DNA of 64,000 nt from positions 562,382 to 626,381 of the forward strand of contig JAJEAN010000007.1 in assembly GCA_022822725.1 (NCBI GenBank), in the 5' to 3' direction. Positions 20,974-56,178 of this stretch are shown in pieces; within the stretch, counting starts at the first letter, position 1; every line of letters begins with the position of its first letter. Position numbers and translations under genes: made by a program. The DNA is from Candidatus Latescibacterota bacterium (GTDB taxonomy: Bacteria; JAAXHH01). The notes under the pieces are model-generated. The model was not told where the DNA came from. It did no database searches and worked only from the letters and a program-made list of their open reading frames with translations.

Positions 20974-22047
20974 TCACGAATACGGGTCTGCGGCGTCGCG
21001 CAACGCGTCTCCGAGGAAGTTGAAGGCGATGACGACGACCAGCACCGGCGCGGCGGGGAATAGAAGCCAGGGATGGTTGAGCAGCACCGTGACGCGCTGC
21101 GCTTCCTCGAGCAGCACGCCCCAGCTGGTCATGGGGGGCCGGATGCCCAGTCCCAGGAAGCTCAGGGCCGTTTCTCCCAGGATCATGCCCGGGATGGCCA
21201 GCGTGGCCACGACGATGATGTGGCTGTAGCAGCCGGGCAGCAGGTGGCGCGAGATGATGTACCAGTGCCCCGCGCCGGCGGAACGTGCCGCCGTCGTGTA
21301 GTCCTGCTCGCGGAAGACGAGGACCTTGCCCCGGACTTCGCGGGCCAGGCCGCCCCAGCTGATGATGGACAGGATGATCGTGATGCCCAGGTAGGTCTCG
21401 ATACTTGTCCATGCGGCGGGCAGCGCCGCCCCGAGCGCCATCCACAGCGGTATCGGCGGAAAGGAGGCCAGGATCTCGACGACACGCTGAAGGGCGTGGT
21501 CGATCCAGCCGCCGAAGTAGCCGGAGAGCGTGCCGAGGACGGATCCGAGGATCAGGCTGAGGAAGACGCCGATGATCCCCACGGTAAGCGAAACGCGGGC
21601 GCCGTGGAAGATGCGCGAGAGCAGGTCGCGGCCCATGCGGTCCGTCCCGAGCAGGTACATGGGACCTTCCGAATGGACCAGCCGGAAGTCGCCGCTTGCG
21701 TCCCTCGACAGGAACCGGACCGGGTAACGCCGGCTCTGGTCCGTCTCGTACGCCAGTTCGAGGGTGACCGGGTTCTGCGTGGAGGTAAGGCCGTAGACGT
21801 AGAACCCCTCTGACCAGTCGAAATGCAGGTCCTGGGGCGGAAGGTACCGGACCTGGATCCGGATTTCGTTATGGTCGTAGGGGGAGAAATACCCGGCGAA
21901 GATCGCCACGAGGTAAAACAGTCCCAGGACGACTCCCGCCGCGATGCCCATCCGGTTCTTCCGGAACCGCCGCCAGATCAGCGCACGGTAGCTGAGATAG
22001 CCCGCATCCTGGACCGTTTCCATCGGGTCGACCGTGGTCGTGGTCAT
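20974..22047 (-). CDS. peptide/nickel ABC transporter permease (DppC/OppC-like)
   Basis: 6-TM permease with EAA-loop region; last gene of minus-strand operon ATPase-ATPase-SBP-permease-permease. Confidence 0.85.
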   Translation of the reverse strand: MTTTTVDPMETVQDAGYLSYRALIWRRFRKNRMGIAAGVVLGLFYLVAIFAGYFSPYDHNEIRIQVRYLPPQDLHFDWSEGFYVYGLTSTQNPVTLELAYETDQSRRYPVRFLSRDASGDFRLVHSEGPMYLLGTDRMGRDLLSRIFHGARVSLTVGIIGVFLSLILGSVLGTLSGYFGGWIDHALQRVVEILASFPPIPLWMALGAALPAAWTSIETYLGITIILSIISWGGLAREVRGKVLVFREQDYTTAARSAGAGHWYIISRHLLPGCYSHIIVVATLAIPGMILGETALSFLGLGIRPPMTSWGVLLEEAQRVTVLLNHPWLLFPAAPVLVVVIAFNFLGDALRDAADPYS

Positions 22048-22101: not shown

Positions 22102-23088
22102 CTACTCATACCGTATCCTCGGGTCCGCCCAGGCCAGCGCGATGTCGGCCAGGATGTTGCCGATGATCAGGAGCAGGCTGAACATCATCAGCAGGGTACC
22201 GGCCAGGTAGATGTCCTCTGCGACCAGGGCCCGCAGCAGCAACGGCCCCACGGTGGGCAGGCCCAGGACGATCGCCACGATCGTGGCCCCGGAGAGGATG
22301 TTCGGCAGGCTCATGCCCAGGATCGTGATCAGCGGGTTGATGGCGATACGCGCCGCGTGCTTGATGACGACGACGGACTCCTTGAGGCCCTTGGCCCGGG
22401 CCGTCTGTACGAAGGGCTGGCCGAGAACGTCCAGGAGATTGCCGCGCATGATGCGCATCAGGCCGGCCGTCCCGTTGATGCCCACCACGATGACCGGTAT
22501 CCAGAGGTGCTTCAGGAAGTCGACGAGCTTGTCCCACGTCCAGGGCGCGCCTTCGTACTCGCTTGAGAAGAGGCCGAACAGGGGAATCCTGTAGATCTCG
22601 AACACGAAGACCAGGAGGGCCAGGGCCAGGAGGAATCCCGGCATGGACATGCCGATGAAGCTGATGAAAGACAGCACGTTGTCGGACAGGCGGTACTGGT
22701 GGGTAGCCGAATAGATGCCGATGGGGATCGCCACGGCGTAGGTGAAAAGCAGGGCGCCCAGGGCGATGAGCACGGTGAAAGCGAGCCGGTCCCAGATCAG
22801 CGAGTTGACTTCCTGCTCGTATTCGAAGGATTCGCCGAAATCACCCACGACGAACCCCGAGATCCAGTTCACGTACTGCCTCCACATGGGCTGGTCCAGG
22901 CCGTATCGTTCCCGCAGCTCGTCGATGCGGGCGATGGAGCTGCTGTCGCCGTACATCTCCTCCAGTTCCTGGATCTTGCGGTCCAGGAAGTCGCCCTCGG
23001 GCAACTGGATGATGACGAAGCCGATCATGGAAATGGCAAGGAGGGTCGGGATGGCGAGAAGGCAGCGCTGTATGACGTAGGTGATCAT
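22102..23088 (-). CDS. peptide/nickel ABC transporter permease (DppB/OppB-like)
   Basis: MITYVIQRCLLAIPTLLAISMIGFVIIQLPEGDF N-terminus typical of DppB/OppB. Confidence 0.85.
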   Translation of the reverse strand: MITYVIQRCLLAIPTLLAISMIGFVIIQLPEGDFLDRKIQELEEMYGDSSSIARIDELRERYGLDQPMWRQYVNWISGFVVGDFGESFEYEQEVNSLIWDRLAFTVLIALGALLFTYAVAIPIGIYSATHQYRLSDNVLSFISFIGMSMPGFLLALALLVFVFEIYRIPLFGLFSSEYEGAPWTWDKLVDFLKHLWIPVIVVGINGTAGLMRIMRGNLLDVLGQPFVQTARAKGLKESVVVIKHAARIAINPLITILGMSLPNILSGATIVAIVLGLPTVGPLLLRALVAEDIYLAGTLLMMFSLLLIIGNILADIALAWADPRIRYE

Positions 23089-23153: not shown

Positions 23154-25232
23154 TCAGTCGATGTAGAACTGCTCGGGGAAACTCGTCGCCGGGCCGGCGA
23201 TGGCCCAGGGGCCGAGAATGCCCGAGTCGGGTACGTTATGGAAGTTGTTCTTCACTATGACGGGCCTGGGCGTGCGGGCCGCGGTGCCCAGGTGGAAGGG
23301 CCCGTGCTCGATATGGATCCGCACGGCGTCCTGTACCAGGCGGTGCCGGGCTTCCAGGTCCTGCTCGTGTTTGATCCGGTCGTAGATGTCGAGCAGCTCG
23401 ATCATGACGCCCGTAGGCGCTTCGCCCCTTTCGCCGCCTGATTCGTACCATTTGCCCACCTGGGGGTGCCAGTACTTTCCGGAAGTCGGAAACACCCAGT
23501 CCGGATAGGTGAACAGGTCCATTTCCGCCTCGCCGTGGAGATGGGCGGTGAACTCGCCGAGGTCGCGGCGCAGCTTGAGTTCGGCTCCGGGCGGCGTGTA
23601 TACGATGACCTCCATCCCCAGTACCCGCCAACCCTCGGCCACGATCAGGGCGACGTCGTTTTCATGGGCGATGTGCGCCGCCGCCGGCGCGTCCAGCACG
23701 AGGGTAAGCCGCTGGCCGTCGGGACGAAGCCGGTATCCCTCGTCGTCGCGGCGGGTGAGCCCCATCTCGTCCAGCAACCGGTTCGCCTGCCGCAGGTCGA
23801 AGTCCGCGTCGGTGGCTTTCCACAGGTCGAATAGTCGTGCACCTTCCGGATCCAGGAAATGCCAGCCCTCCTCGCTCACGGTGGCGGCCTGGGGTTTCGC
23901 AAGGCCCTTGAAGGCGACGGCGTTGCACTTCTCGCGGTCGATGGCCGCGGCGAGCGCCTTGCGGAACCGCTGGTCGCGGATCAGGCCGCGGAGGACCGGG
24001 TCGTTGTCCGACCAGTTCAGGTTGATCGCCGGATCCGATCCGGAAGCGCTCTCCCATAACTTGACGCGGTAATCTCCCTTTTCCCGGCTTTCCATGAACA
24101 GGGAAAAGTCCCGGAGTTCAAGATCGCGGAACTGGCAGTCCACCTCGCCGGCCAGCACCCTGAGGACCCGGATCTGGGCTTCGGGAACCAGCGTGGTGAC
24201 CACCTGGTCGATGTAGGGCAGCTGCCGGCCGTGGTCGTCCACGACGTAGTAATAGGGGTTCCGCTCCAGGATCACCCGGAAGCCGCCCTTTTCGATGCGG
24301 GTGATCGTCCACGGCCACAGGGAGGGCTGTTCGGGATTGCGCTGGGGCAGCCTGTGCTTCTCGTACAGGACGAAATCGTCCACGTCGTCGTTGTGGTCCG
24401 GGTGGAACTGCTTCATATAGTGCTCCGGCACGTTGTACTCTTCGCTCCACCAGAACCCGGTCGCCAGCCACAAGGGCACCAGCCAGTTGGGTCCGGCGAA
24501 CTTCATGACGATGGTGTAGTCGTCCGGGGTCTCGACCTCCATGGGCTTGCCGTCCACGAGGCACCACACGGGCGGCGGGTACCGGTGGCGGTCGTCGAGG
24601 CACAGGTCGTACCAGGCGCGGAAGGATGCCGAGGTATAGGGATGGCCGTCGGACCACCGTACGCCCTCGCGCAGCTTGAGCGTCAGTTCCGTTCCGTCCT
24701 CGTTGAACGTCCACGATTCCGCCAGGCCCGGTTCGAGCCCCGTGGTCCTCCGGTTCCATCGGATCAGCGGGGCGTAGCCGGCGATCATCTTCCAGGTGCC
24801 GAGATCGGTGTTGTTGTGAAACTGGCGCCAGGTCCCGCCGTAGATCCCGGGCCCATCGTATCCCTCGTAGTCGTGTCTGGCCACAAGCGGGTTGGCCGGG
24901 ATCCGCTCCTGCAGGGGCGGCAGGGCGCCCGCCGCCACCCGGGCGGCCAGTTGGGGCGCCTCCTTGCGGGAAAGATCCAGCGAACGGATCGCCGGAGATT
25001 CCGTTGCGGATTCGCCGCCGGCGCAGGCCAGCACACCGACGCAGGCCAGCATACCGACGCAGGCCAGCATACCGCTGCGAGCCAGCATCCCGAAGCGAGC
25101 CAACATCCCGGCGCAGGCCAGCATACCGCCGCGAGCCAGCATATCGCCGCTAGCCAGCATACCGCTGCGAGTCGTGCCGAAGCAAGCCGCAAGGGATACG
25201 CGTGCCGGGGTTTTGGGAAGGTGTCTGTTCAT
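23154..25232 (-). CDS. ABC transporter substrate-binding protein, family 5 (peptide/nickel)
   Basis: The 995-aa ORF 23154..26141 runs into the upstream ATPase in another frame. Plausible start is ATG 25232 (MNRHLPKTPARVSLAA...). Family-5 SBP core follows. N-terminal region contains an 18-bp tandem repeat. Confidence 0.8.
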   Translation of the reverse strand: MNRHLPKTPARVSLAACFGTTRSGMLASGDMLARGGMLACAGMLARFGMLARSGMLACVGMLACVGVLACAGGESATESPAIRSLDLSRKEAPQLAARVAAGALPPLQERIPANPLVARHDYEGYDGPGIYGGTWRQFHNNTDLGTWKMIAGYAPLIRWNRRTTGLEPGLAESWTFNEDGTELTLKLREGVRWSDGHPYTSASFRAWYDLCLDDRHRYPPPVWCLVDGKPMEVETPDDYTIVMKFAGPNWLVPLWLATGFWWSEEYNVPEHYMKQFHPDHNDDVDDFVLYEKHRLPQRNPEQPSLWPWTITRIEKGGFRVILERNPYYYVVDDHGRQLPYIDQVVTTLVPEAQIRVLRVLAGEVDCQFRDLELRDFSLFMESREKGDYRVKLWESASGSDPAINLNWSDNDPVLRGLIRDQRFRKALAAAIDREKCNAVAFKGLAKPQAATVSEEGWHFLDPEGARLFDLWKATDADFDLRQANRLLDEMGLTRRDDEGYRLRPDGQRLTLVLDAPAAAHIAHENDVALIVAEGWRVLGMEVIVYTPPGAELKLRRDLGEFTAHLHGEAEMDLFTYPDWVFPTSGKYWHPQVGKWYESGGERGEAPTGVMIELLDIYDRIKHEQDLEARHRLVQDAVRIHIEHGPFHLGTAARTPRPVIVKNNFHNVPDSGILGPWAIAGPATSFPEQFYID
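25027..25170. repeat. 18-bp tandem repeat, 8 copies (gccagcataccgacgcag-like), in frame inside the signal-peptide region of the SBP gene
   Basis: Direct reading; encodes (G-M-L-A-C/R-A/S)n on the minus strand. Confidence 0.9.
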
Positions 25233-25252
25233 CAGTGCTGTGTCATTCTGGC

Positions 25253-26260
25253 TCAAATGCCCTGGAGAGACAGCGTGTCGCCGTAATGGCACGCCGCCTT
25301 GACGCCTCCGGGATAGGTCTTTAGTTCCGGTTCGGATTCCCGGCACAGGTCCGTGGCGTGCCGGCACCTCGGATGAAAGTGACATCCTTTCGGCGGCGAC
25401 GCGGGATCGGGAACGTCGCCGGTCAGGGCGACGCGCGCCCGTTTCTTCTGTACCGCGGGATCGGCCACCGGGACGGCGGAGATCAAGGCCTCCGTGTAAG
25501 GGTGCAGCGGATGGTGGTAGACCTGTTCGGCAGGACCCGTTTCCACGATCCGGCCGAGGTACATGATCGCTACCCGGTCGCTGATGTGCTGCAGCACGCT
25601 CAGGTCGTGGGTGATGAAGATGTAGGAAAGGCCCATGCGGTCCTTGAGCGAGGCCAGGAGGTTCAGTATCTGGGACTGCACGGATACGTCCAGGGCCGAT
25701 ACGGGCTCGTCCGCGATGATCAATTCGGGCTGGAGGGACAGGGCCCGGGCGATGCCGATGCGCTGGCGCTGGCCTCCGCTGAAGGCGTGGGGATAGCGGC
25801 GCATGTCCCCGGCGTTCAGCCCCACATCGGCCAGTAGGCCGGCCACGCGGTCCTCCAGTTCGGACCCACGGGCCAGTCCGTTCACACGGAGCGGTTCCCC
25901 CACGATGTCGCTCACCGTCATACGGGGGTTGAGGGACGAGTTCGGGTCCTGGAACACCATTTGCATCCGGTGCCGGTAGGGACGCATTTCGCGTCGGTCC
26001 AGGGGACTGAGATTCACTCGCTCCGCGCCGAAGTAGATATCGCCGTCCGTCGGCGGGATCGTCTTCAGCACACACCGTCCCAGCGTCGTCTTGCCGCACC
26101 CGCTTTCGCCCGCCAGGCCGAGGGTCTCCCCGGTGCCGCACTGAAAATCAACGCCGTCCACCGCCCGGACGTCGCCCCGCTTGCGCCGCCAGAGTCCTTT
26201 TCGAATCGGAAAGTACTTCTTCAGATTCCGGACGTCGAGGATGGTTTCCATATCAGGCAT
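25253..26260 (-). CDS. peptide ABC transporter ATP-binding protein (DppF/OppF-like)
   Basis: Walker [10 protein letters not shown], signature LSGGQRQR, Walker B ADEP, C-terminal oligopeptide-ATPase extension. Confidence 0.9.
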
Positions 26261-27257
26261 CCTGCGCGACCTTGTCCGCGTGCCAGCAGCGAACCCGGTG
26301 TCCCGGTTCGGTTTCCTCCACGGGGGGCATCGAGGCGCACTGCTCCGTGGCGTAACGGCATCGAGGCGCGAAAGCGCAGCCTTCCGGCAGGTTGAGCGGA
26401 GACGGTACCGTGCCCGGGATCGTGGACAGCTGCGATGGTTTCTCCCTGCCGATCCGAGGCGCCGATTCGAGCAGTCCCCGGGTATACGGATGGGCCGGCT
26501 GGTAGAAAATCCGTTCAGGCGATCCGGTTTCGACGATCTGCCCCGCGTACATGATCATGATTTCGTCGGCCATGTCGGCGATGACGCCCAGGTCGTGGGT
26601 TATCATCACTATGGCCATGTTCAGGTCTTCTTTCAGCTCCTTGAGCAGATCGAGGATCTGCGCCTGGATGGTCACGTCCAGCGCCGTGGTGGGCTCGTCG
26701 GCGATCAGGAGTTCGGGACCGCAAGACAGGGCCATGGCGATCATGGCGCGTTGCCGCATGCCGCCGGAAAGCTCGTGGGGATACTCGTCCACCCTCTGCA
26801 ACGGGCCGGGGATGCCGACTTCGGACAAGGCCTCCACCGCCCGGTTGCGTGCGGACTTCCGGTCCATGCCATGGTGAAGGCGCAGCGCCTCGCCGATCTG
26901 ACTGCCCACGGTGTATACGGGGTTGAGGGCGGTCATGGGCTCCTGGAAGATCATGGAGATCCTTCGGCCCCGGATTCGGCGCATGGCGTCGCCCCCCGGC
27001 TCGAGGTCGTGTATGTCGACGGTTGCTCCGTCTTCCCTTTCATGGTAGGTGATCTTTCCTTCGATGTACCCCGGTTTCGGGACCAGCCGCATGAGGGAGA
27101 GCCCCATCATGCTCTTGCCGCACCCGCTTTCACCCACCACGCCAAGGGTTCTGCCCCGCCTGATCCGGAAGGAGACGTCCCGCACGGCCCGGACGGGACC
27201 GTCGTCTGTGGGGATCACGGCTGAGAGGTGTGAGACATCAAGGAGAAGGTCTTGCAT
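26253..27257 (-). CDS. peptide ABC transporter ATP-binding protein (DppD/OppD-like)
   Basis: Walker A GESGCGKS, signature LSGGMRQR, Walker B ADEP; 8-bp overlap with downstream ATPase. Confidence 0.9.
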
Positions 27258-29663: not shown

Positions 29664-32003
29664 CTAGGATTTTGTCGACCGCACCGGAGCGGCGGGCTCC
29701 GTTTCCGGTTCCGGTGTTTCCACCTTGTCCTGCGCATGGTCGTCCGCCGTCGCCTGGTCCCTACCGTCCACGGTTTCCTGCGCCTGTTCGTTTGGAGTTA
29801 CCGCCCCGTTTCCGTCCACGGGCTTCGTTTCCGATACGGCCGTTTCAGCGGCCGCTTCTCCGGCCGCTTCCTTCGCTCCGGTTTCGCCATCCTCGGCCGT
29901 TTCCTGTGACTCGGCGGTCTCATGTGGCTCGGTGGTCTCCTGCGACCCGGCCGCTTCCTGCGACCCGGTGGTCTCCTGCGACTCGGTGGTCTCCTGCGCC
30001 CCGGCCGCTTCCTGCGACTCGGAGGACACCGTCGACTCAGCGGTCTTCTTCGACCCGCCGGTATCACGCGCTTCGGGAGGTAGCGGGGGCAGGGTCTTGC
30101 CTTCGATGAGCATGGCCACCTCGTCCCGCGAGAGCGAATCCCGTTCCAGGAGGGCCTTGGCCACGACGTGAAGCTGGGGTTCGTAATCCTTGAGCAGTTT
30201 CTCCACGCGTTCTCCTGCCTCGGTCACGAAACGCTGGATCTCCTGGTCGATGCGATGGGCGGTGGTCTCGCTGTAGTTTGGTTGGTGGGCAATGTCACGG
30301 CCGAGGAAGACCTCGTGCTCCTTCTCGCCTAGCGCCGTGGCCCCGAGCTCCTCGCTCATCCCCCAGTCGCATACCATGTGGCGGCTGATGCGGGTGACCT
30401 GTTCGATGTCGCTTTGCGCGCCGGAGGTCACTTCGCCGAAGACGATCTGCTCGGCCGCACGGCCGCCCAGGGCCGCGGCCATCGTACCCAGACAGTACGA
30501 GCGGGACTGGAGGTAGCGTTCCTCCGGCAGGGGTATGGTCACGCCAAGGCCCCTGCCCTGGGGCAGGATCGTCACCTTGTGCAGGGGGTCGATTTCGGGG
30601 ATGAGTTCGAAGGCGAGGGCGTGACCGGCCTCGTGATAGGCCACGATCTCCCGCTCCTTGTCGCTGATCACGAGCTGGCGCTTCGATCCCATCATGATCT
30701 TTTCTTTTGCTTCCTCGAAGTCATCGTTGGTTACGGAAGCGCGATCGTAACGCGCCGCGATGAGCGCCGCCTCGTTCACCATGTTGGCCAGGTCCGCGCC
30801 TACCATGCCGGGCACGCCCTTGGCGAGCACATCCAGCTTGACCGAGTCGTCGAGGGGGATTTTGCGACTCTTTACGTGGATCTCCAGGATCTTCTCCCGT
30901 CCCACCACGTCCGGACGGTCGACGACGATGTGCCGGTCGAAGCGGCCGGGTCGGAGCAGTGCGGGATCGAGCACGTCCGGACGGTTCGTCGCGCCGATCA
31001 CGATGATAGAGTCCGTTTTCTCGAAACCGTCCAGCCCCACAAGCAACTGGTTCAGGGTCTGTTCCCGCTCGTCGTGCCCGCCACCGAGTCCGGCGCCCCG
31101 GTGTCGTCCGATGGCGTCGATCTCATCGATGAAGATGATACACGGTGCGTTCTGGCGGGCCTGGTCGAAGAGGTCCCGCACGCGGGAAGCGCCCACGCCG
31201 ACGAACATCTCCACGAAGTCCGATCCGCTCATGCTGAAGAAGGGCACGCCCGCCTCGCCGGCCACGGCCTTGGCGAGCAGCGTCTTGCCCGTGCCCGGCG
31301 GGCCCAGCAGCAGGGCGCCTTTCGGTATCCGGCCACCCAGGGCGTGGAACTTGTCCGGGTTCTTCAGGAACTCCACGATCTCCTGCAGGTCGCGCTTGGC
31401 CTCGAGCACCCCAGCCACGTCGGCGAAGGTGATGGAAGGCCGGTCTTCCACGATCATCTTGGCACGGCTCTTGCCGAAGGAGAACATGCCGCGCTGGCCC
31501 GACTGCATCTGGCGCAGGATGAAGATCCAGAACCCGATCAACAGCAGCCAGGGCAGGGCGGCGATGAGGTAGCCTACCCAGTTGGTGGCCTCCGGTTCGG
31601 CCGTAACCATGACGTTTTTCGCCATGAGATCGGCCACCAGCTCCGGGTCGTCGAAGGGGATGTATACCTTGAATTCGCGCAGGCTCTGGTTCGCGCCTTC
31701 GACCACGGTCGACGAGTCCTGGCGCAGTGTGCCCGTGATCAGCTTCTCGGTGATGGTGACCTGCTCGATGTTGTCGGCTTCGAGAAACTGCTGGAACTGC
31801 GTATACGACACGGTTACCGCGTTATCGCCCCGCCTGGGCAGGAACTGCGCGGCCATCAGGAAGAACAGGAAGAGTACGAGCCAGATCAGGATCGAGCGGT
31901 TCTTCCTCGACTTGTCGGGCGGTGGCTGCCGGTCGTTCCTGGGATGGGGCTGTCGCTGGTCTGGGGGCGGCTGCGGATTCCGGTCCTGCGGTGGTTGGGA
32001 CAT
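29664..32003 (-). CDS. ftsH: ATP-dependent zinc metalloprotease FtsH with Pro/Gln-rich N-terminal extension and ~150-aa acidic low-complexity C-terminal tail
   Basis: AAA Walker [12 protein letters not shown] region, HEAGHAL zinc site. ORF-track start 32063 overlaps the sigma gene; internal ATG 32003 (MSQPPQD) avoids overlap. C-terminal tail rich in SQETT/ESQE repeats. Confidence 0.9.
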
Positions 32004-32047
32004 GTCTTGTTGAAGACCTCGGTTCGTTCGGGGGTGGGTCGGCGTCT

Positions 32048-32671
32048 TTAGAAACCGGTGCAAATCGGCGCGGCGACGATCAGGTGGCGGAGATCAAGGC
32101 CGCCTTCGGTCCGGTACGGCGACCAGTCCCTGAACATGCTCCGCAACTTGCTTCGCGCTTCCGAAAGCCTGCGTTTCACGGTACCCACGGGAACGTTCAT
32201 CCTCGTGCTGACCTCATCACAGGAGTAACCGGAGAAATAGTACATGGCGACGGTCCGGCCGAGTGCGTGCGACAGCGTCGCTACGGCATTCCGCACGCTG
32301 CGGCGCTTTGCCCGGTCCAGGTGCACATCGCCCGGCCAGGCGCTTCCGTCGTCTTCCTCCTGCCGGACCTCCGACCAGGCCGTCTCCCGGTGTCTGCGGT
32401 CACCCACGTGGGCGAGGCACCGGTTACGCGCGATGGCGCGCAGCCACTGCGGAAACCTTTCCAGGTCGCGCAGGGACGACAGCCGCTGGTACACGGAAAG
32501 CCAGATATCCTGTACGATATCCTGCTTGTCCTGGCGGTTCCTGACCATGGATCCGACGATACGCCTGATCTCGCGGTCATGCCGCTGCACCAGCTTTTCG
32601 AAATCGTCCGGACAGCCGTTCAACACGCTTTCGATGATGAGTCCGTCCGCCGTGTGCGCCATTTCGTACAT
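32048..32671 (-). CDS. RNA polymerase sigma-70 factor, ECF subfamily
   Basis: Region 2 (DIVQDIWLSVYQRL) and region 4 HTH (YSCDEVSTRMNVPVGTVKRRL). Confidence 0.85.
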   Translation of the reverse strand: MYEMAHTADGLIIESVLNGCPDDFEKLVQRHDREIRRIVGSMVRNRQDKQDIVQDIWLSVYQRLSSLRDLERFPQWLRAIARNRCLAHVGDRRHRETAWSEVRQEEDDGSAWPGDVHLDRAKRRSVRNAVATLSHALGRTVAMYYFSGYSCDEVSTRMNVPVGTVKRRLSEARSKLRSMFRDWSPYRTEGGLDLRHLIVAAPICTGF

Positions 32672-34272: not shown

Positions 34273-34385
34273 CCAAAGGCCACCCGGAGACCACCCAAAG
34301 GCCACCCGGTGACCACCCCAAGACCACCGGCCGCGATGTTCGAATCCGGCCGCGATGTTCGAATCCGGCCCGGCTGTTCGAAACC
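34273..34385. repeat. two adjacent tandem repeats in the intergenic region (22-bp ccaaaggccacccggagaccac x2.5; 19-bp ggccgcgatgttcgaatcc x3)
   Basis: Direct reading. Confidence 0.8.
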
Positions 34386-36493: not shown

Positions 36494-36505
36494 CTCGTGC
36501 GGACC

Positions 36506-36592
36506 AGTAATGAACCGGGCCTGAAGTGAACCGGCCCGTAATGTACCGGCCCGTAATGAACCGGCCCAGAAACGAACCGGGCCTGCAGTTGA
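36506..36592. repeat. degenerate ~15-bp tandem repeat array (gaaccggccc-core, ~5 units) in intergenic region
   Basis: Direct reading. Confidence 0.75.
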
Positions 36593-44765: not shown

Positions 44766-46940
<2,175 letters not shown>

Positions 46941-48893: not shown

Positions 48894-49787
48894 ATGAAAC
48901 TGGACTATCTGCTCATATCCGCGACGGAACTGGAACAGGAACCGGTCCGGGCGCGGATGGAAATCTCCGGGACGGACCATCCCCTTGCCCGGCCCTGGCA
49001 CCTGGGTGCATTGTGCGGGAAGCCGGTACTCCTGATCGAGGGCGGCGTGGGACTGGTCAACACGGCCGCGGCCCTGACCCTTGCGCTGACTCGCCATGAT
49101 CCCGACATGATCCTGCAATTCGGGGTAGGCGGCGCATACGTGCGGCCCGGTCTCAATGTGGGTGACCTTGCCATTGCTACGGAGGAATGCTATGGCGACA
49201 CGGGGGTTCTGGCACCGGAAGGCTGGATCGACCTGGAAGGGATGGGTTTTCCCACGGTTCCCACCCGGACCGACGCCTATGGGCTAACCGACGCCTATGG
49301 ACAAACCGACCCCCACGGGCAAATCGAGCATTCCGGGCAGACCGGGCATTCCGGGCAGACCGGGCACTCTGGGCAGACCGGGCATTCCGGGCAGACCGGA
49401 CCGGCAGGACGGCCGCCCAGGGAACCGCTGTACAACCGGATACCGCTCGATGACGCGCGCGCGGAGCACATCCGGCAATGCCTGGAATCCGGACTGGAGG
49501 GAACCGCGGCGCACAAAATCATGGCTGGTCCCTTTGTCACCGTGCAGCAATGCAGCGGCGTACAGTCGGTCGGAGATACCATGGCTGCCCGCTACGATGG
49601 GATATGCGAGAACATGGAAGGCGCGGCGGCGGCCCACGTTGCCGTCGCCAACGGGGTCCCCTTCGTGGAGATACGCGGCATCAGCAACCGGGTGGTCGAC
49701 CGGGACCTGTCCGGGTGGAACCTGCCCCTGGCGATCAGGCGCTGTCATCAAGCGATCGAACTGATCGTAAAACAAGGGACCCGCTGA
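48894..49787 (+). CDS. mqnB: futalosine hydrolase (MqnB; PNP/UDP phosphorylase family) with in-frame repeat insertion
   Basis: PNP_UDP_1-type N-terminus, adjacent mqnD. The 297-aa length is inflated by a tandem-repeat-encoded insert (TDAYG x2, HSGQTG x4). Confidence 0.65.
   Translation: MKLDYLLISATELEQEPVRARMEISGTDHPLARPWHLGALCGKPVLLIEGGVGLVNTAAALTLALTRHDPDMILQFGVGGAYVRPGLNVGDLAIATEECYGDTGVLAPEGWIDLEGMGFPTVPTRTDAYGLTDAYGQTDPHGQIEHSGQTGHSGQTGHSGQTGHSGQTGPAGRPPREPLYNRIPLDDARAEHIRQCLESGLEGTAAHKIMAGPFVTVQQCSGVQSVGDTMAARYDGICENMEGAAAAHVAVANGVPFVEIRGISNRVVDRDLSGWNLPLAIRRCHQAIELIVKQGTR
49329..49400. repeat. 18-bp tandem repeat x4 (cattccgggcagaccggg) in frame inside mqnB, preceded by a 15-bp tandem (accgacgcctatggg x2) at 49269-49300
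   Basis: Direct reading. Confidence 0.9.
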
Positions 49788-52491: not shown

Positions 52492-54630
52492 TCAATAAGA
52501 CTCCCAGCGATGCGGCCGGTCCGGGAACCAGGCCAGGTCTACTCCCATGGCGGCCAGCTGCCAGAAGAGATAGGCGAGCAATATGCCAATAAACATCCTT
52601 CGGACCAGATGGTAAAGCGTCGGACCGCCGATGCGGAACACGATGGCCTGAACCAGCCAGGCCAGGAAGATCGTCAGGAAGGCGTTCCGAACCGGGGCGG
52701 ACATGACTACCACCATGCCGATGGGGTGGAGCGGCCACCAGGGAAGGAGAAACCGCCCGGCCAGGAGCACGATCATCATGACGACGCCGCTCCCGAAAAA
52801 CAGGATTTCGAGGTCGCTGATCCGCGTCGCGTTGTTGACCCAGGTCACGATCAGATCGTAGAACCGGATACCCCGGTCCGTGCCCAGGTCGGTCCGCAGG
52901 TTCTGCGCGCCAGAGGTGTTTCCGGCGTAAATCACGTAGCCGATGGAGGCCGCGGCACTCAGGCAGAAGGCGGCGGCCACTCCGGCGAAGAGGTGCCTGG
53001 AAGAGATCCCGCTCCCGGGACCCCGCAAATCCGGTAACCTGCCGGTCCGGGCTTGCCGGTGCTGGCGCCAGCGGGATTTCAGCCAGGCCACGTGGGACGT
53101 GCCGATCATGGTAAAGGTGCGCCAGTTGCGCGCGAACCCGTTGGCCATGCCCAGGGCCGTGAGGTCGCCGTGCCCGATCCGGGCGGACCCCACGATGGCG
53201 ATGGAGAACTGGTGGCTGTTGATGGGCAGGTCGAGTGTCACCACGCCCGTTTCCGCGACGACGCGGGCCAGGGCGATGTAGAAGATAAAGAGCAAGGCGA
53301 TGAACAGCGCCATGATCGGCAGAGACATCCCGGCGGCGTACAGCCAGCAAATGATGAAGAGTAGACCGAGCAGGAAGCCGAAGACGGCCGTTCGGTAAGA
53401 GAACAGCTCTTCCGCATCGTCCAGTTCGTCTTGCCGGCCCAGGGCATGTCGCCATACGGCCACGAGGTGCCGACGGGCCATCCACAGGCCGAAAAGGACG
53501 AAGGTAACCAGGCCGGCTATGGATTGAATGCCGGCAAGACCGCCATGGATAATGGTGCCGGAGGTGGATCCTACACCGAGCAGGTTGAGCGATCCCTCCT
53601 GAAGCACGTAGAAGACGAGAAACAGCCACATGCTGAGCAGCACGTCCCGGTTGACGTAGATCAGCAGGCAAAAGACGAACACGTTCATGCGGAAGATTAG
53701 CCCGGGAAAGGCGGGATCGAGGGTAAGCACCCGGGAGTGTTCGGCCATGATCGGGACCGGAGGCCAAACGCCCCAGAAAGATATGATGTTCCAGATCATG
53801 ACCAGGGACATGGCCGCCGCGCCGGTCAGGATCCATCGATTGCCGTTTTTCCCATTTCCGCCTTTCCCATTGTCGCCACCCACCCCAGCGCTGCCACCCT
53901 CCCCGACGCCGCCTTCCTTTCTGCCGTCTTCCCCAGTGCCGCCTTCCTTTCCGCCGCCGCCCAGCGAAATCAGGTGCAGGCCCACTTCACCCAGCGGGAA
54001 CTGAAGCCGCTCGTGTTCGACCCACTGTTTCCGGAGCATGACGACGATGCACGCGCCGACGAAGAGCAGGACCAGGATGAAGGCACCCCACCAGAACAGG
54101 GGGGACAGCCATGCACCCCAGGGAATCGACTGGCCGGACTGGAGTCCCTCGTAGAATACCCGCGCCGCCGCCCGGTCGCTCAGGACCAGCCATTCGGGCA
54201 GATAGGGAAAGAAGATGGTTTCCCAGCTGTTCTCCGGCGAAGAGAAGTAGAACGGCGCGGTGATCACAACGAGCAGGTATTTGGTCATGGCCTGGTCGGG
54301 CACCGTGGAAGCGATCCACCCCATGGCGAAAACCATGATCAGTTCATAGAACGTGAGCGCCGACGCGGGACGAATCCGCGCGACCAGGACATTGGGCAGC
54401 AGCACGCAAAAGAGAAAGGGAACGAGGAACACCGGGGGAAGGTGGGTCGCCGCCGGTTCGTAGCCGATATGATTGGCGCTGTATTCCCCTGTGAAACCGA
54501 TGAAAACCGAAAGCGCGGCCCCGATGAGGAAGGCCCGGAAGGTCCGGAAGGCCCGAAAGGTCCGGAAGCGCTGGAGGAAGGCCGGTGCGATCAATGTCAT
54601 CTCACGGTAGGAGGGGCGTGACCGGTCCAC
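52492..54630 (-). CDS. large polytopic membrane protein of unknown function with Gly/Lys-rich extramembrane loop
   Basis: ~14 predicted TM segments; N-terminal RFRTFRAF repeat from 9/18-bp tandem duplication; loop GGGGKEGGTGEDGRKEGGVGEGGSAGVGGDNGKGGNGKNGN; no family recognised. Alternative start at 54600 (MTLIAPAF). Confidence 0.6.
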   Translation of the reverse strand: MDRSRPSYREMTLIAPAFLQRFRTFRAFRTFRAFLIGAALSVFIGFTGEYSANHIGYEPAATHLPPVFLVPFLFCVLLPNVLVARIRPASALTFYELIMVFAMGWIASTVPDQAMTKYLLVVITAPFYFSSPENSWETIFFPYLPEWLVLSDRAAARVFYEGLQSGQSIPWGAWLSPLFWWGAFILVLLFVGACIVVMLRKQWVEHERLQFPLGEVGLHLISLGGGGKEGGTGEDGRKEGGVGEGGSAGVGGDNGKGGNGKNGNRWILTGAAAMSLVMIWNIISFWGVWPPVPIMAEHSRVLTLDPAFPGLIFRMNVFVFCLLIYVNRDVLLSMWLFLVFYVLQEGSLNLLGVGSTSGTIIHGGLAGIQSIAGLVTFVLFGLWMARRHLVAVWRHALGRQDELDDAEELFSYRTAVFGFLLGLLFIICWLYAAGMSLPIMALFIALLFIFYIALARVVAETGVVTLDLPINSHQFSIAIVGSARIGHGDLTALGMANGFARNWRTFTMIGTSHVAWLKSRWRQHRQARTGRLPDLRGPGSGISSRHLFAGVAAAFCLSAAASIGYVIYAGNTSGAQNLRTDLGTDRGIRFYDLIVTWVNNATRISDLEILFFGSGVVMMIVLLAGRFLLPWWPLHPIGMVVVMSAPVRNAFLTIFLAWLVQAIVFRIGGPTLYHLVRRMFIGILLAYLFWQLAAMGVDLAWFPDRPHRWESY

Positions 54631-54652: not shown

Positions 54653-54745
54653 GTGCCGGCCACCACGTGCCGGCCACCAAGTGCCGGCCACCACGTGCCC
54701 ACCACGTGCCGGCCGGTACGTGCCGGCCACCAAGTGCCCACCGTC
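54653..54745. repeat. 14-bp tandem repeat array (gtgccggccaccac-like, ~6-7 units) in the region upstream of the membrane-protein gene
   Basis: Direct reading. Confidence 0.85.
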
Positions 54746-54771
54746 CGGCACGGGCCGTCAGGTACCGGCCG

Positions 54772-56178
54772 TCAGGACCACACGGTCAGTCCCATGACGA
54801 GATATACGACTCCGGTCAGCACGGCGGCAACCATCGCATAGGGGATCTGGGTCCTGACGTGATCGATGTGATCCGATGCCGCGCCGGTCGAAGCGAGAAT
54901 CGAGGTATCGGAAAGTGGAGAGCAGTGGTCGCCGAAGACCCCGCCGCCGGCTACGGCCGCAATAGTCGCGTATACGATGTCGGTCAACGCGTCCCCTGAA
55001 TAAACCAGGGCCACGGGTACCGCGATGGGCAGCATGATGGCGAAAGTGCCCCAGGACGTGCCGGTGGAAAAGGCCATCACGGCCGCCAGCAGGTAGGTAG
55101 CCAGGGGGAGCATGGACGGCGTGAGGAAATCCCTTGAAACCGATACCATGTAGTCGGCCGTGCCCATGTCTCTGCTCAACTGGTTGATCGTGTAGGCGAA
55201 AACCAGGATCATGATGGCCGGCATGATCCCTTTGATGCCCGTCATCGCCGTGTCCATGATGTCGTTCAGCCGGATGCCCTGGATGCGGATCGATATGCCG
55301 AGGAATATGACGACGGCGAGATAGGCTTCCAGCGTCTTCGCGGACCCCGTGAGCACAAAGGAACCCAGGACGATGACGATGATCAGGATCACGGGCAGGA
55401 TGAAGTTCAGGAACAGGCGGGGTTTGATATCCGGGAACATGGGGGTCTCGGTCAGCTCCCGTCCGATGAGCGGGACCGCGCCGTCTCTCAGCACCTTGCC
55501 TTCGTCCATGGCCCGGCGTTCCGCTTTCTTCATGGGGCCGAACTCCGGGACCAGTCCGGCGGCGATAAGTCCGACCAGGATGACCGCCGTTATGGCGTAG
55601 ATATTGTAGGGAATGGAGTGAATGAACGCGTTCAGCGCATCGCCGGCATCGGCTATGGGTCCCATGCCGATGGTGAGTCCGGAGATATAGATCGCCCAGC
55701 CCGTGAAGGGCAGGAGGACGATGACCGGGGCGGAGGTGGAGTCGGCGATATAGGCCAGTTTCTCCCTGGATATCCGCGCCTTGTCGGCCAGGCTCCGCAT
55801 CGTGGTCCCGACGAAGAGCGGGCTGAAATAGTCGCTGAAGAATACGAACATGCCCAGCATCCACGTCCAGAGCTGTACTCCCCTGCGCGACAACTTCCGG
55901 TAGGCCACGAACCGGGTGAAAGCCTCAATGGCGCCGGTACGCATGAAGAAGGCGATCATGATCCCGATGCAGATCTCGAGCAGGAACACCCAGGAGAAAC
56001 TGGTATTCCCGATCGCGTCGATCATCAACTGCGAAAACCCCAGTGGCCCCTGTCCCGCGATCAGGACGCCCACCAGGCAGGCCACAGCAAGGGAATACAC
56101 GGCGTTCCTGGTCAGGAAGGCCAGTACGATGGCAAGGGCCGGCGGCACGATGGAGAGGATGCCGAGGTCGGTTTCCAT
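54772..56178 (-). CDS. Na+/H+ antiporter NhaC family protein
   Basis: 468 aa, NhaC-typical N-terminal helices and overall topology. Confidence 0.8.
   Translation of the reverse strand: METDLGILSIVPPALAIVLAFLTRNAVYSLAVACLVGVLIAGQGPLGFSQLMIDAIGNTSFSWVFLLEICIGIMIAFFMRTGAIEAFTRFVAYRKLSRRGVQLWTWMLGMFVFFSDYFSPLFVGTTMRSLADKARISREKLAYIADSTSAPVIVLLPFTGWAIYISGLTIGMGPIADAGDALNAFIHSIPYNIYAITAVILVGLIAAGLVPEFGPMKKAERRAMDEGKVLRDGAVPLIGRELTETPMFPDIKPRLFLNFILPVILIIVIVLGSFVLTGSAKTLEAYLAVVIFLGISIRIQGIRLNDIMDTAMTGIKGIMPAIMILVFAYTINQLSRDMGTADYMVSVSRDFLTPSMLPLATYLLAAVMAFSTGTSWGTFAIMLPIAVPVALVYSGDALTDIVYATIAAVAGGGVFGDHCSPLSDTSILASTGAASDHIDHVRTQIPYAMVAAVLTGVVYLVMGLTVWS

Follow-up and report, generated by a model that had tools for sequence, protein, structure and literature searches.

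An in-frame 18-bp coding minisatellite in the predicted signal peptide of a family-5 substrate-binding lipoprotein from a Candidatus Latescibacterota genome

The window analysed here is a 64,000-nucleotide stretch of contig JAJEAN010000007.1 (assembly GCA_022822725.1, Candidatus Latescibacterota bacterium). Its minus strand carries a gene for a family-5 substrate-binding protein (SBP), and the 5' end of this gene contains eight in-frame 18-bp tandem repeat units that encode variants of the peptide G-M-L-A-C-A. We consider this array to be most probably (about 0.68) a tolerated in-frame coding minisatellite, located in a segment that is cleaved off, with a working signal kept at its 3' end. The mechanism appears to be ordinary and the place unusual; the array reveals no new mechanism and does not look like a dedicated switch. 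The features of the gene and the array are as follows (residues are numbered from the ATG at 25232).

23154..25232, minus strand: substrate-binding lipoprotein gene, family-5 (Opp/Dpp/Nik-type), assigned by PF00496 and homologues; 692 aa from the putative ancestral ATG 25232
25182..25232, minus strand: putative ancestral start with the n-region and early h-region (MNRHLPKTPARVSLAAC), placed by alignment with orthologue 5' ends
25164-25181, minus strand: possible decayed ninth unit (TTC GGC ACG ACT CGC AGC, FGTTRS), only 9/18 identical to U5 in register, weakly supported
25020-25163, minus strand: eight 18-bp units, register G-M-L-A-C-A, residues 24-71
25146-25163, minus strand: U1
25128-25145, minus strand: U2
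25110-25127, minus strand: U3
25092-25109, minus strand: U4
25074-25091, minus strand: U5
25056-25073, minus strand: U6
25038-25055, minus strand: U7
25020-25037, minus strand: U8
25023..25076, minus strand: predicted working signal, residues 53-70 (SGMLACVGMLACVGVLAC), comprising the h-region and, as lipobox Cys, C70 (or C64), after R52
25104-25106 (U4) and 25086-25088 (U5), minus strand: internal in-frame ATGs, each of which as a start would give a canonical 22-28-residue lipoprotein signal peptide

The eight in-frame units reported in an initial annotation of this DNA were confirmed by Tandem Repeats Finder (TRF), by a repeat-copy search that found copies in register and spaced 18 bp, and by self-match at lag 18, which is 0.83 in the array compared with 0.30 on average over the window (sd 0.057) and is ≥0.6 at only three places in the 64 kb. 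With an 18-bp period, TRF places the array at 25018-25164 (8.2 copies, 82% matches, score 154); with a 54-bp period, it recovers the same array as 2.6 copies and with a higher score (178). The encoded peptide is identical to the 50-residue peptide originally described. The coordinates given for it (25027-25170) are ∼7 nt off, which is immaterial, and its description as uniformly hydrophobic does not hold because it contains four Arg and one Asp. On the minus strand the unit reads GGT ATG CTG GCY NGC NNC, and U1-U8 encode GMLASG, DMLARG, GMLACA, GMLARF, GMLARS, GMLACV, GMLACV and GVLACA, followed by GGESATES. Pairwise unit identity ranges from 61 to 100% (11-18 of 18 positions), and the longest exact repeat within the array is 22 nt. 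The possible ninth unit might fit better if one codon is assumed to have been deleted, on a tentative reading of the sequence. The array has the properties of an in-frame coding minisatellite: its period is a multiple of three, the open reading frame (ORF) is open throughout and the copy state of orthologues is different. As the annotation had pointed out, gain or loss of units would not disturb the reading frame, since 18 nt correspond to six codons inside the ORF.

Two subtypes can be distinguished among the units: A (GCC TGC) comprises U3, U6, U7 and U8, and B (GCT CGC/AGC) comprises U1, U2, U4 and U5. The two also differ at a synonymous site (GCT vs GCC). From U1 to U8 the subtypes run B B A, B B A, A A, and U6 is identical to U7. 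This order and the better TRF score of the 54-bp period indicate that a Cys-to-Arg change probably spread through superunit duplication and that growth was stepwise: after an initial duplication, Cys was mutated to Arg once or twice, a block of three units was then copied, and a single unit was duplicated recently. Since a three-unit block was apparently copied, most Arg residues would have been inherited by copying rather than selected unit by unit.

Comparison with orthologues points to a single-unit origin. Orthologue signals contain one unit: MRQKILNILVFIPLATLLGMLAC followed by AGGESTT (P0003/L015), …LFGMLAC followed by AGGDS (L024) and …LLGMIAC followed by TGSEQ (L016). At the DNA level, the single GGAATGCTGGCGTGCGCG then GGCGGTGAATC of these three orthologues (L015, L024 and L016) matches U8 and its 3' flank, while their start codons align to ATG 25232 and lie at an equal distance from the oppF stop. 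The copy state is thus 8 in the window, 1 in L015, L024 and L016, and an independent 2 (27-bp type) in L013 and L014. A scan of genome contigs found the array in none of 24 related species representatives (absent from 24/24). Because single-unit orthologues align to U8 and the array is absent from these 24 species, it is, as judged from the alignments, a lineage-specific amplification of the coding segment for the lipobox and the last part of the h-region.

The family assignment of the gene made in the annotation is well supported. The 692-aa product matches PF00496 (SBP_bac_5) over residues 166-566 (E 1.9e-48; 165.9 bits against a gathering cut-off of 32.4), which places it in SBP_bac_5, and it has 795 homologues with a top identity of 92%. 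It lies inside an Opp/Dpp-type ABC transporter operon with the following neighbours.

26253-27257, minus strand: oppD-like ATPase gene, ABC_tran and oligo_HPY domains; upstream, same operon
25253-26260, minus strand: oppF-like ATPase gene, ABC_tran and oligo_HPY domains; upstream, same operon
22102-23088, minus strand: oppB-like permease gene, downstream; permease-pair domains BPD_transp_1, BPD_transp_1_N and OppC_N
20974-22047, minus strand: oppC-like permease gene, downstream; permease-pair domains BPD_transp_1, BPD_transp_1_N and OppC_N

The gene order oppD-oppF-SBP-oppB-oppC, all on the minus strand, is the same on related contigs. With two BPD_transp_1 permeases and two oligo_HPY ATPases, as in other SBP_bac_5 importers, the operon is predicted to encode an Opp/Dpp-type peptide importer. 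The closest proteins are 79-92% identical and come from metagenome-assembled genomes (MAGs) named Gemmatimonadota/Gemmatimonadetes, with some records labelled Latescibacterota or 'bacterium'. Many related MAGs are closed chromosomes of ∼3.7-3.9 Mb. Record names (IRC1_bin, APA_bin, SB0665_bin, Plut_ and KELL22-1) suggest that these relatives live in sponge and coral holobionts. Other readings of the array DNA were also considered. A plus-strand antisense ORF across the array was rejected as a shadow ORF, because SBP homology and the pattern of G+C at third codon positions (GC3) favour the minus strand. An Rfam search over the array gave no credible overlap with an RNA family, and the RNA fold of the array is not more stable than shuffled sequence (z = +1.79), so an RNA element was rejected.

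We then focused on the export signal. In nearly all full-length homologues inspected, a Cys ends the N-terminal hydrophobic stretch and is followed by a Ser/Gly-rich linker, which suggests a lipoprotein family. The Cys at the end of the h-region is conserved across homologues (N-termini of P0001-P0060 and loci), and U8 aligns to their lipobox. The single GMLAC-AGGES lipobox of the orthologues aligning with the last unit also bears out the earlier claim that the repeat lies in the N-terminal export signal. Numbered from ATG 25232, Cys residues occur at positions 17, 40, 58, 64 and 70. The PROSITE PS51257 pattern, {DERK}(6)-[LIVMFWSTAG](2)-[LIVMFYSTAGCQ]-[AGS]-C, further requires the Cys at precursor position 15-35 and a Lys or Arg in the first seven residues. 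It had been proposed that several Cys residues in the repeat could each serve as the lipobox Cys. This holds only in part: C64 and C70 are the only ones that fit the pattern, and C17, C40 and C58 have Arg or Lys in the 10 preceding residues. Residues 53-73 (SGMLACVGMLACVGVLACAGG) form the only uncharged run of h-region length (mean Kyte-Doolittle 1.89), preceded by R52. At the level of pattern, the protein is therefore compatible with a predicted lipoprotein signal. On direct reading, the N-terminus has no twin arginine, and a twin-arginine translocation (Tat) signal is unlikely.

Relying on these findings, we propose the following course of events. Slipped-strand or microhomology-mediated events probably duplicated the 18 bp that code for the lipobox and the last part of the hydrophobic core (G-M-L-A-C-A), and stepwise rounds of further amplification would have followed. 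The three 3'-most units, the only ones that still resemble a working signal, may give a complete one, i.e. R52, a 17-residue uncharged core and a LAC lipobox. With a start at 25232, the five upstream units, which gained Arg, Ser or Asp, would act as an unusually long n-region with positive charge; with a unit-internal ATG as the start, they would simply be untranslated. Since the signal peptide would be removed at maturation, the mature binding protein (C followed by AGGES…) would be unchanged; with cleavage at C70, its N-terminus would be the same as in the orthologues, whichever start is used. The array would thus be tolerated because the signal peptide is cut off and the 3'-most units supply a complete signal. 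We infer export, cleavage at C70 or C64, and the start codon from these comparisons, and assume that the array is nearly neutral. Some findings weigh against a tolerated minisatellite with a working 3' signal: (i) from ATG 25232, the lipobox Cys is residue 64 or 70, beyond the PS51257 limit of 35; (ii) the signal peptide from this start has 69 residues, which is atypically long; and (iii) the same kind of array, including the Cys/Arg alternation, occurs in the signal peptide of an unrelated FlgA homologue (see below), and may point to a process that is sequence-specific or under selection.

The choice of start codon separates two variants of the proposed course. A start at ATG 25232 is favoured because of its positional homology with orthologue starts, its A-rich context and the open frame; it lies 20 nt past the oppF stop, and the MNRH that it opens resembles the MNRY/MSRH of orthologues. 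Translation could instead begin at a unit-internal ATG (25106 or 25088), leaving the upstream units and the old start as a 5' leader RNA, in which case each extra unit would add an ATG and thus more candidate start codons. This is unlikely. Three observations speak for it: starts at 25106 and 25088 comply fully with the PS51257 position and charge rules while 25232 does not; the SD-like (Shine-Dalgarno-like) AGGA before orthologue SBP starts (L013-L016) reads AGAA in the window (25233-25252, from reading of the alignment); and another annotation pipeline placed the gene start on identical DNA at the internal U1 ATG 25160, giving 668 aa instead of 692 aa. An internal start has to contend with the features that favour ATG 25232 and with the lack of an SD-like motif upstream of any internal ATG, compared with 22 of the 35 window genes (about 60%) that have one; none was found upstream of ATG 25232 either. 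A more radical alternative is that the repeat is retained, either as an N-terminal membrane anchor or multiply acylated tether, or in a gene that is becoming a pseudogene with a crippled signal. The several Cys residues, the long N-terminal extension and the Arg residues that break up the hydrophobic stretch would fit such a protein. We regard this as very improbable, given that the last units keep a canonical h-region and lipobox aligned to those of the orthologues, the remaining protein is intact and 92% identical to orthologues, and the operon is intact.

The annotation had also suggested a contingency or length-variable locus, in which frequent changes in copy number would tune export efficiency, anchor length or the choice of lipidated Cys. 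The in-frame tandem structure, the identity of U6 and U7 (which means that at least one duplication is recent), the orthologue copy states of 1, 2 or 8 and an FtsH tail array of the same genome that varies in copy number between species all agree with such a locus. The properties of classical contingency loci are missing: the 18-bp period is a multiple of three and rules out a frameshift switch; the array lies inside the ORF, and no promoter-like or terminator-like site was found overlapping it, so that promoter spacing is not shifted either; and its units are diverged (82% matches, unit pairs identical at 11-18 of 18 positions, longest exact repeat 22 nt), whereas classical contingency tracts are perfect short repeats. 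No copy-number variation was observed among the assemblies, which cover a single population. Base for base, the array recurs in four contigs: a 950-kb scaffold from ENA, a Logan contig present in two runs, and two further contigs >1 Mb. A short-read k-mer contig crosses it unbroken, and all assemblies are identical. The retrievable array contigs match the window at 100% identity across 5.6-11 kb and therefore represent one population, with no second strain found, so that the lack of polymorphism among them is uninformative on polymorphism. The contingency claim was not upheld, and an adaptive length-variable locus appears quite improbable. The same contigs bear on whether the array is a repeat expanded or collapsed during assembly. 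Tandem repeats are classic sites of mis-assembly and all copies come from apparently one sample set, but the identical array recurs in all four contigs, k-mers longer than 22 nt should in principle resolve an array with no longer exact internal repeat, the ORF is intact and the ordered subtypes are unlike a collapse or expansion error. An artefact is thus extremely improbable.

Searches for further alleles covered proteins and metagenomes. The array contigs were located through the 668-aa gene call and the neighbouring oppB, oppC and oppD; looking up the exact protein sequences of oppF and the 692-aa product gave no match. Scanning metagenomes for a DNA pattern of two units returned four contigs and no further allele: two are chance matches in membrane proteins and two carry the FlgA array. 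A word-index protein search with the repeat peptide returned 13 candidates and no scored match, and phmmer with the N-terminal 71 residues against 1.84 billion cluster representatives gave only seven weak matches. The six of these that were retrieved all have RCC1-like GQLGLGD…RG repeats, and the matches were treated as spurious.

The N-terminus of this SBP appears to be a repeat-prone, permissive zone in the lineage. Tandem duplications in the first 75 residues occur in 12 of 30 close orthologues and in 0 of 97 distant homologues. By inspection, they are of at least five types: RRVMRDILKYLPL x2; AALLGMLAC/AVLLGTLAC; GSAPDPTVA x2; ARTSLEAPxL x2; and VADAAART x2. Orthologues with duplications in the signal peptide or the post-Cys tether include P0001, P0004/P0135-P0144, P0122, P0123, P0126 and P0133 as well as L013 and L014. 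In a sister lineage, two species representatives share the 27-bp lipobox duplication (AALLGMLAC AVLLGTLAC), as do 8 of 11 members listed for one protein cluster, which indicates that duplicated lipoboxes are tolerated and persist for long. Tandem arrays with a TRF score ≥80 number 15.6 per 100 kb in the window, compared with 10.5 in the loci of relatives and 4.9 in unrelated ones, in a small sample. The array in the SBP gene may thus be one outcome of a general propensity for short tandem arrays, which this lineage would form at any site where the protein tolerates them.

Several other arrays occur in the window. The C-terminal tail of FtsH (minus-strand gene 29664-32063) contains an in-frame 18-bp array of 9.5 copies, (SQE[AT][AT][GE])n, at 29892-30062, and orthologous FtsH tails (L013:272-353, L015:31-111 and L016:164-229) carry arrays with other units and fewer copies (∼3.7-4.6). 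The C-terminal tail of an M3 oligopeptidase (plus-strand gene 44766-46940) has an in-frame 9-bp array of 7.8 copies (GPG GPG …) at 46822-46891. A PNP_UDP_1 (nucleoside phosphorylase superfamily) protein (plus-strand gene 48894-49787) contains an internal in-frame 18-bp array at 49269-49399 (TDAYGL TDAYGQ … TGHSGQ x4 …) that splits the catalytic domain match. The N-terminus of a DUF6785/DUF6784 membrane protein (minus-strand gene 52492-54630) has an in-frame 9-bp array (RTF RAF RTF RAF) at 54528-54568. Apparently intergenic arrays lie at 2464-2563, 34273-34382, 36500-36589 and 54653-54776, with periods of 24, 22/19, 30/15 and 14/39 bp, respectively.

The FlgA array was found in a FlgA homologue (ChapFlgA/SAF) directly after flgG, with five 18-bp units in the N-terminal signal peptide (L050:2049-2133; same sequence in L053). 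The two loci are JGI contigs Ga0210394_10063630 and Ga0210383_10066391 from a soil-type metagenome. The units (GGT GTG CTG GCC TGC/CGC GCC) are nearly the same as in the SBP array and encode MLACAG VLARAG VLARVG VLACAG VLACA, alternating between Cys and Arg with the Cys-type units last. The search pattern largely dictated this unit sequence, but not the arrangement as an array, its place at the N-terminus or the alternation of Cys and Arg. Several duplication types in one orthologue N-terminus, arrays with multiple lipoboxes and ATGs, and the convergent (GVLAC/RA)n array of FlgA leave room for another interpretation, which we consider improbable: that export signals in the sponge- and coral-associated Gemmatimonadota lineage have evolved repeatedly, and possibly under selection, through tandem amplification of signal-peptide and tether segments, in which case repeat number would tune export or anchoring of the binding protein. 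If so, such arrays would permit alternative starts and alternative lipidation sites.

The array can be compared with known systems. Some autotransporter signal peptides have a long charged N-terminal extension before a normal n-h-c signal, and the extension is a conserved motif. By description only, the upstream units resemble it as a charged N-terminal extension and differ from it in being a recent tandem amplification. The array shares more with bacterial coding minisatellites (variable-number tandem repeats, VNTRs), which usually lie in tails, linkers and surface proteins: head-to-tail units of a multiple of three in a permissive segment, a copy state that differs between related lineages and a presumed origin by slippage or unequal recombination. 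Unlike these, it amplifies the lipobox end of a signal peptide, its product is probably discarded and it is known from one population. In Neisseria opa, perfect CTCTT pentamer repeats lie in the region coding for the leader peptide, and slippage shifts the frame to give on/off phase variation at ∼1e-3 per generation (PMC3960869). There too a tandem repeat codes for the hydrophobic part of a leader peptide, but the unit is 5 nt against the diverged 18-nt units here, which give no frame switch. The signal peptide of human APOB is polymorphic for a Leu-Ala-Leu insertion/deletion (27 vs 24 residues), with proposed effects on processing efficiency (PMC4201729). Both cases involve a short Leu/Ala-rich repeat added to or lost from the core of a signal peptide in frame, which is tolerated in APOB and apparently also here. 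APOB differs in being a eukaryotic gene with a single 9-bp step and a documented polymorphism, compared with eight 18-bp units including the lipidated Cys in one population.

The array is a curiosity unless export or population evidence shows function or variation. It also serves as a warning for annotation, because an ATG comes with every unit and pipelines already differ on the start for the same DNA. If the eight-unit form is exported normally, it would be a natural experiment indicating that the Sec/Lgt/Lsp pathway tolerates a ∼50-residue charged extension and decoy Cys motifs before the real lipobox. More broadly, the genome appears to be prone to tandem duplications, which are accommodated by its signal peptides, lipoprotein tethers and disordered tails; the locus is one visible example.

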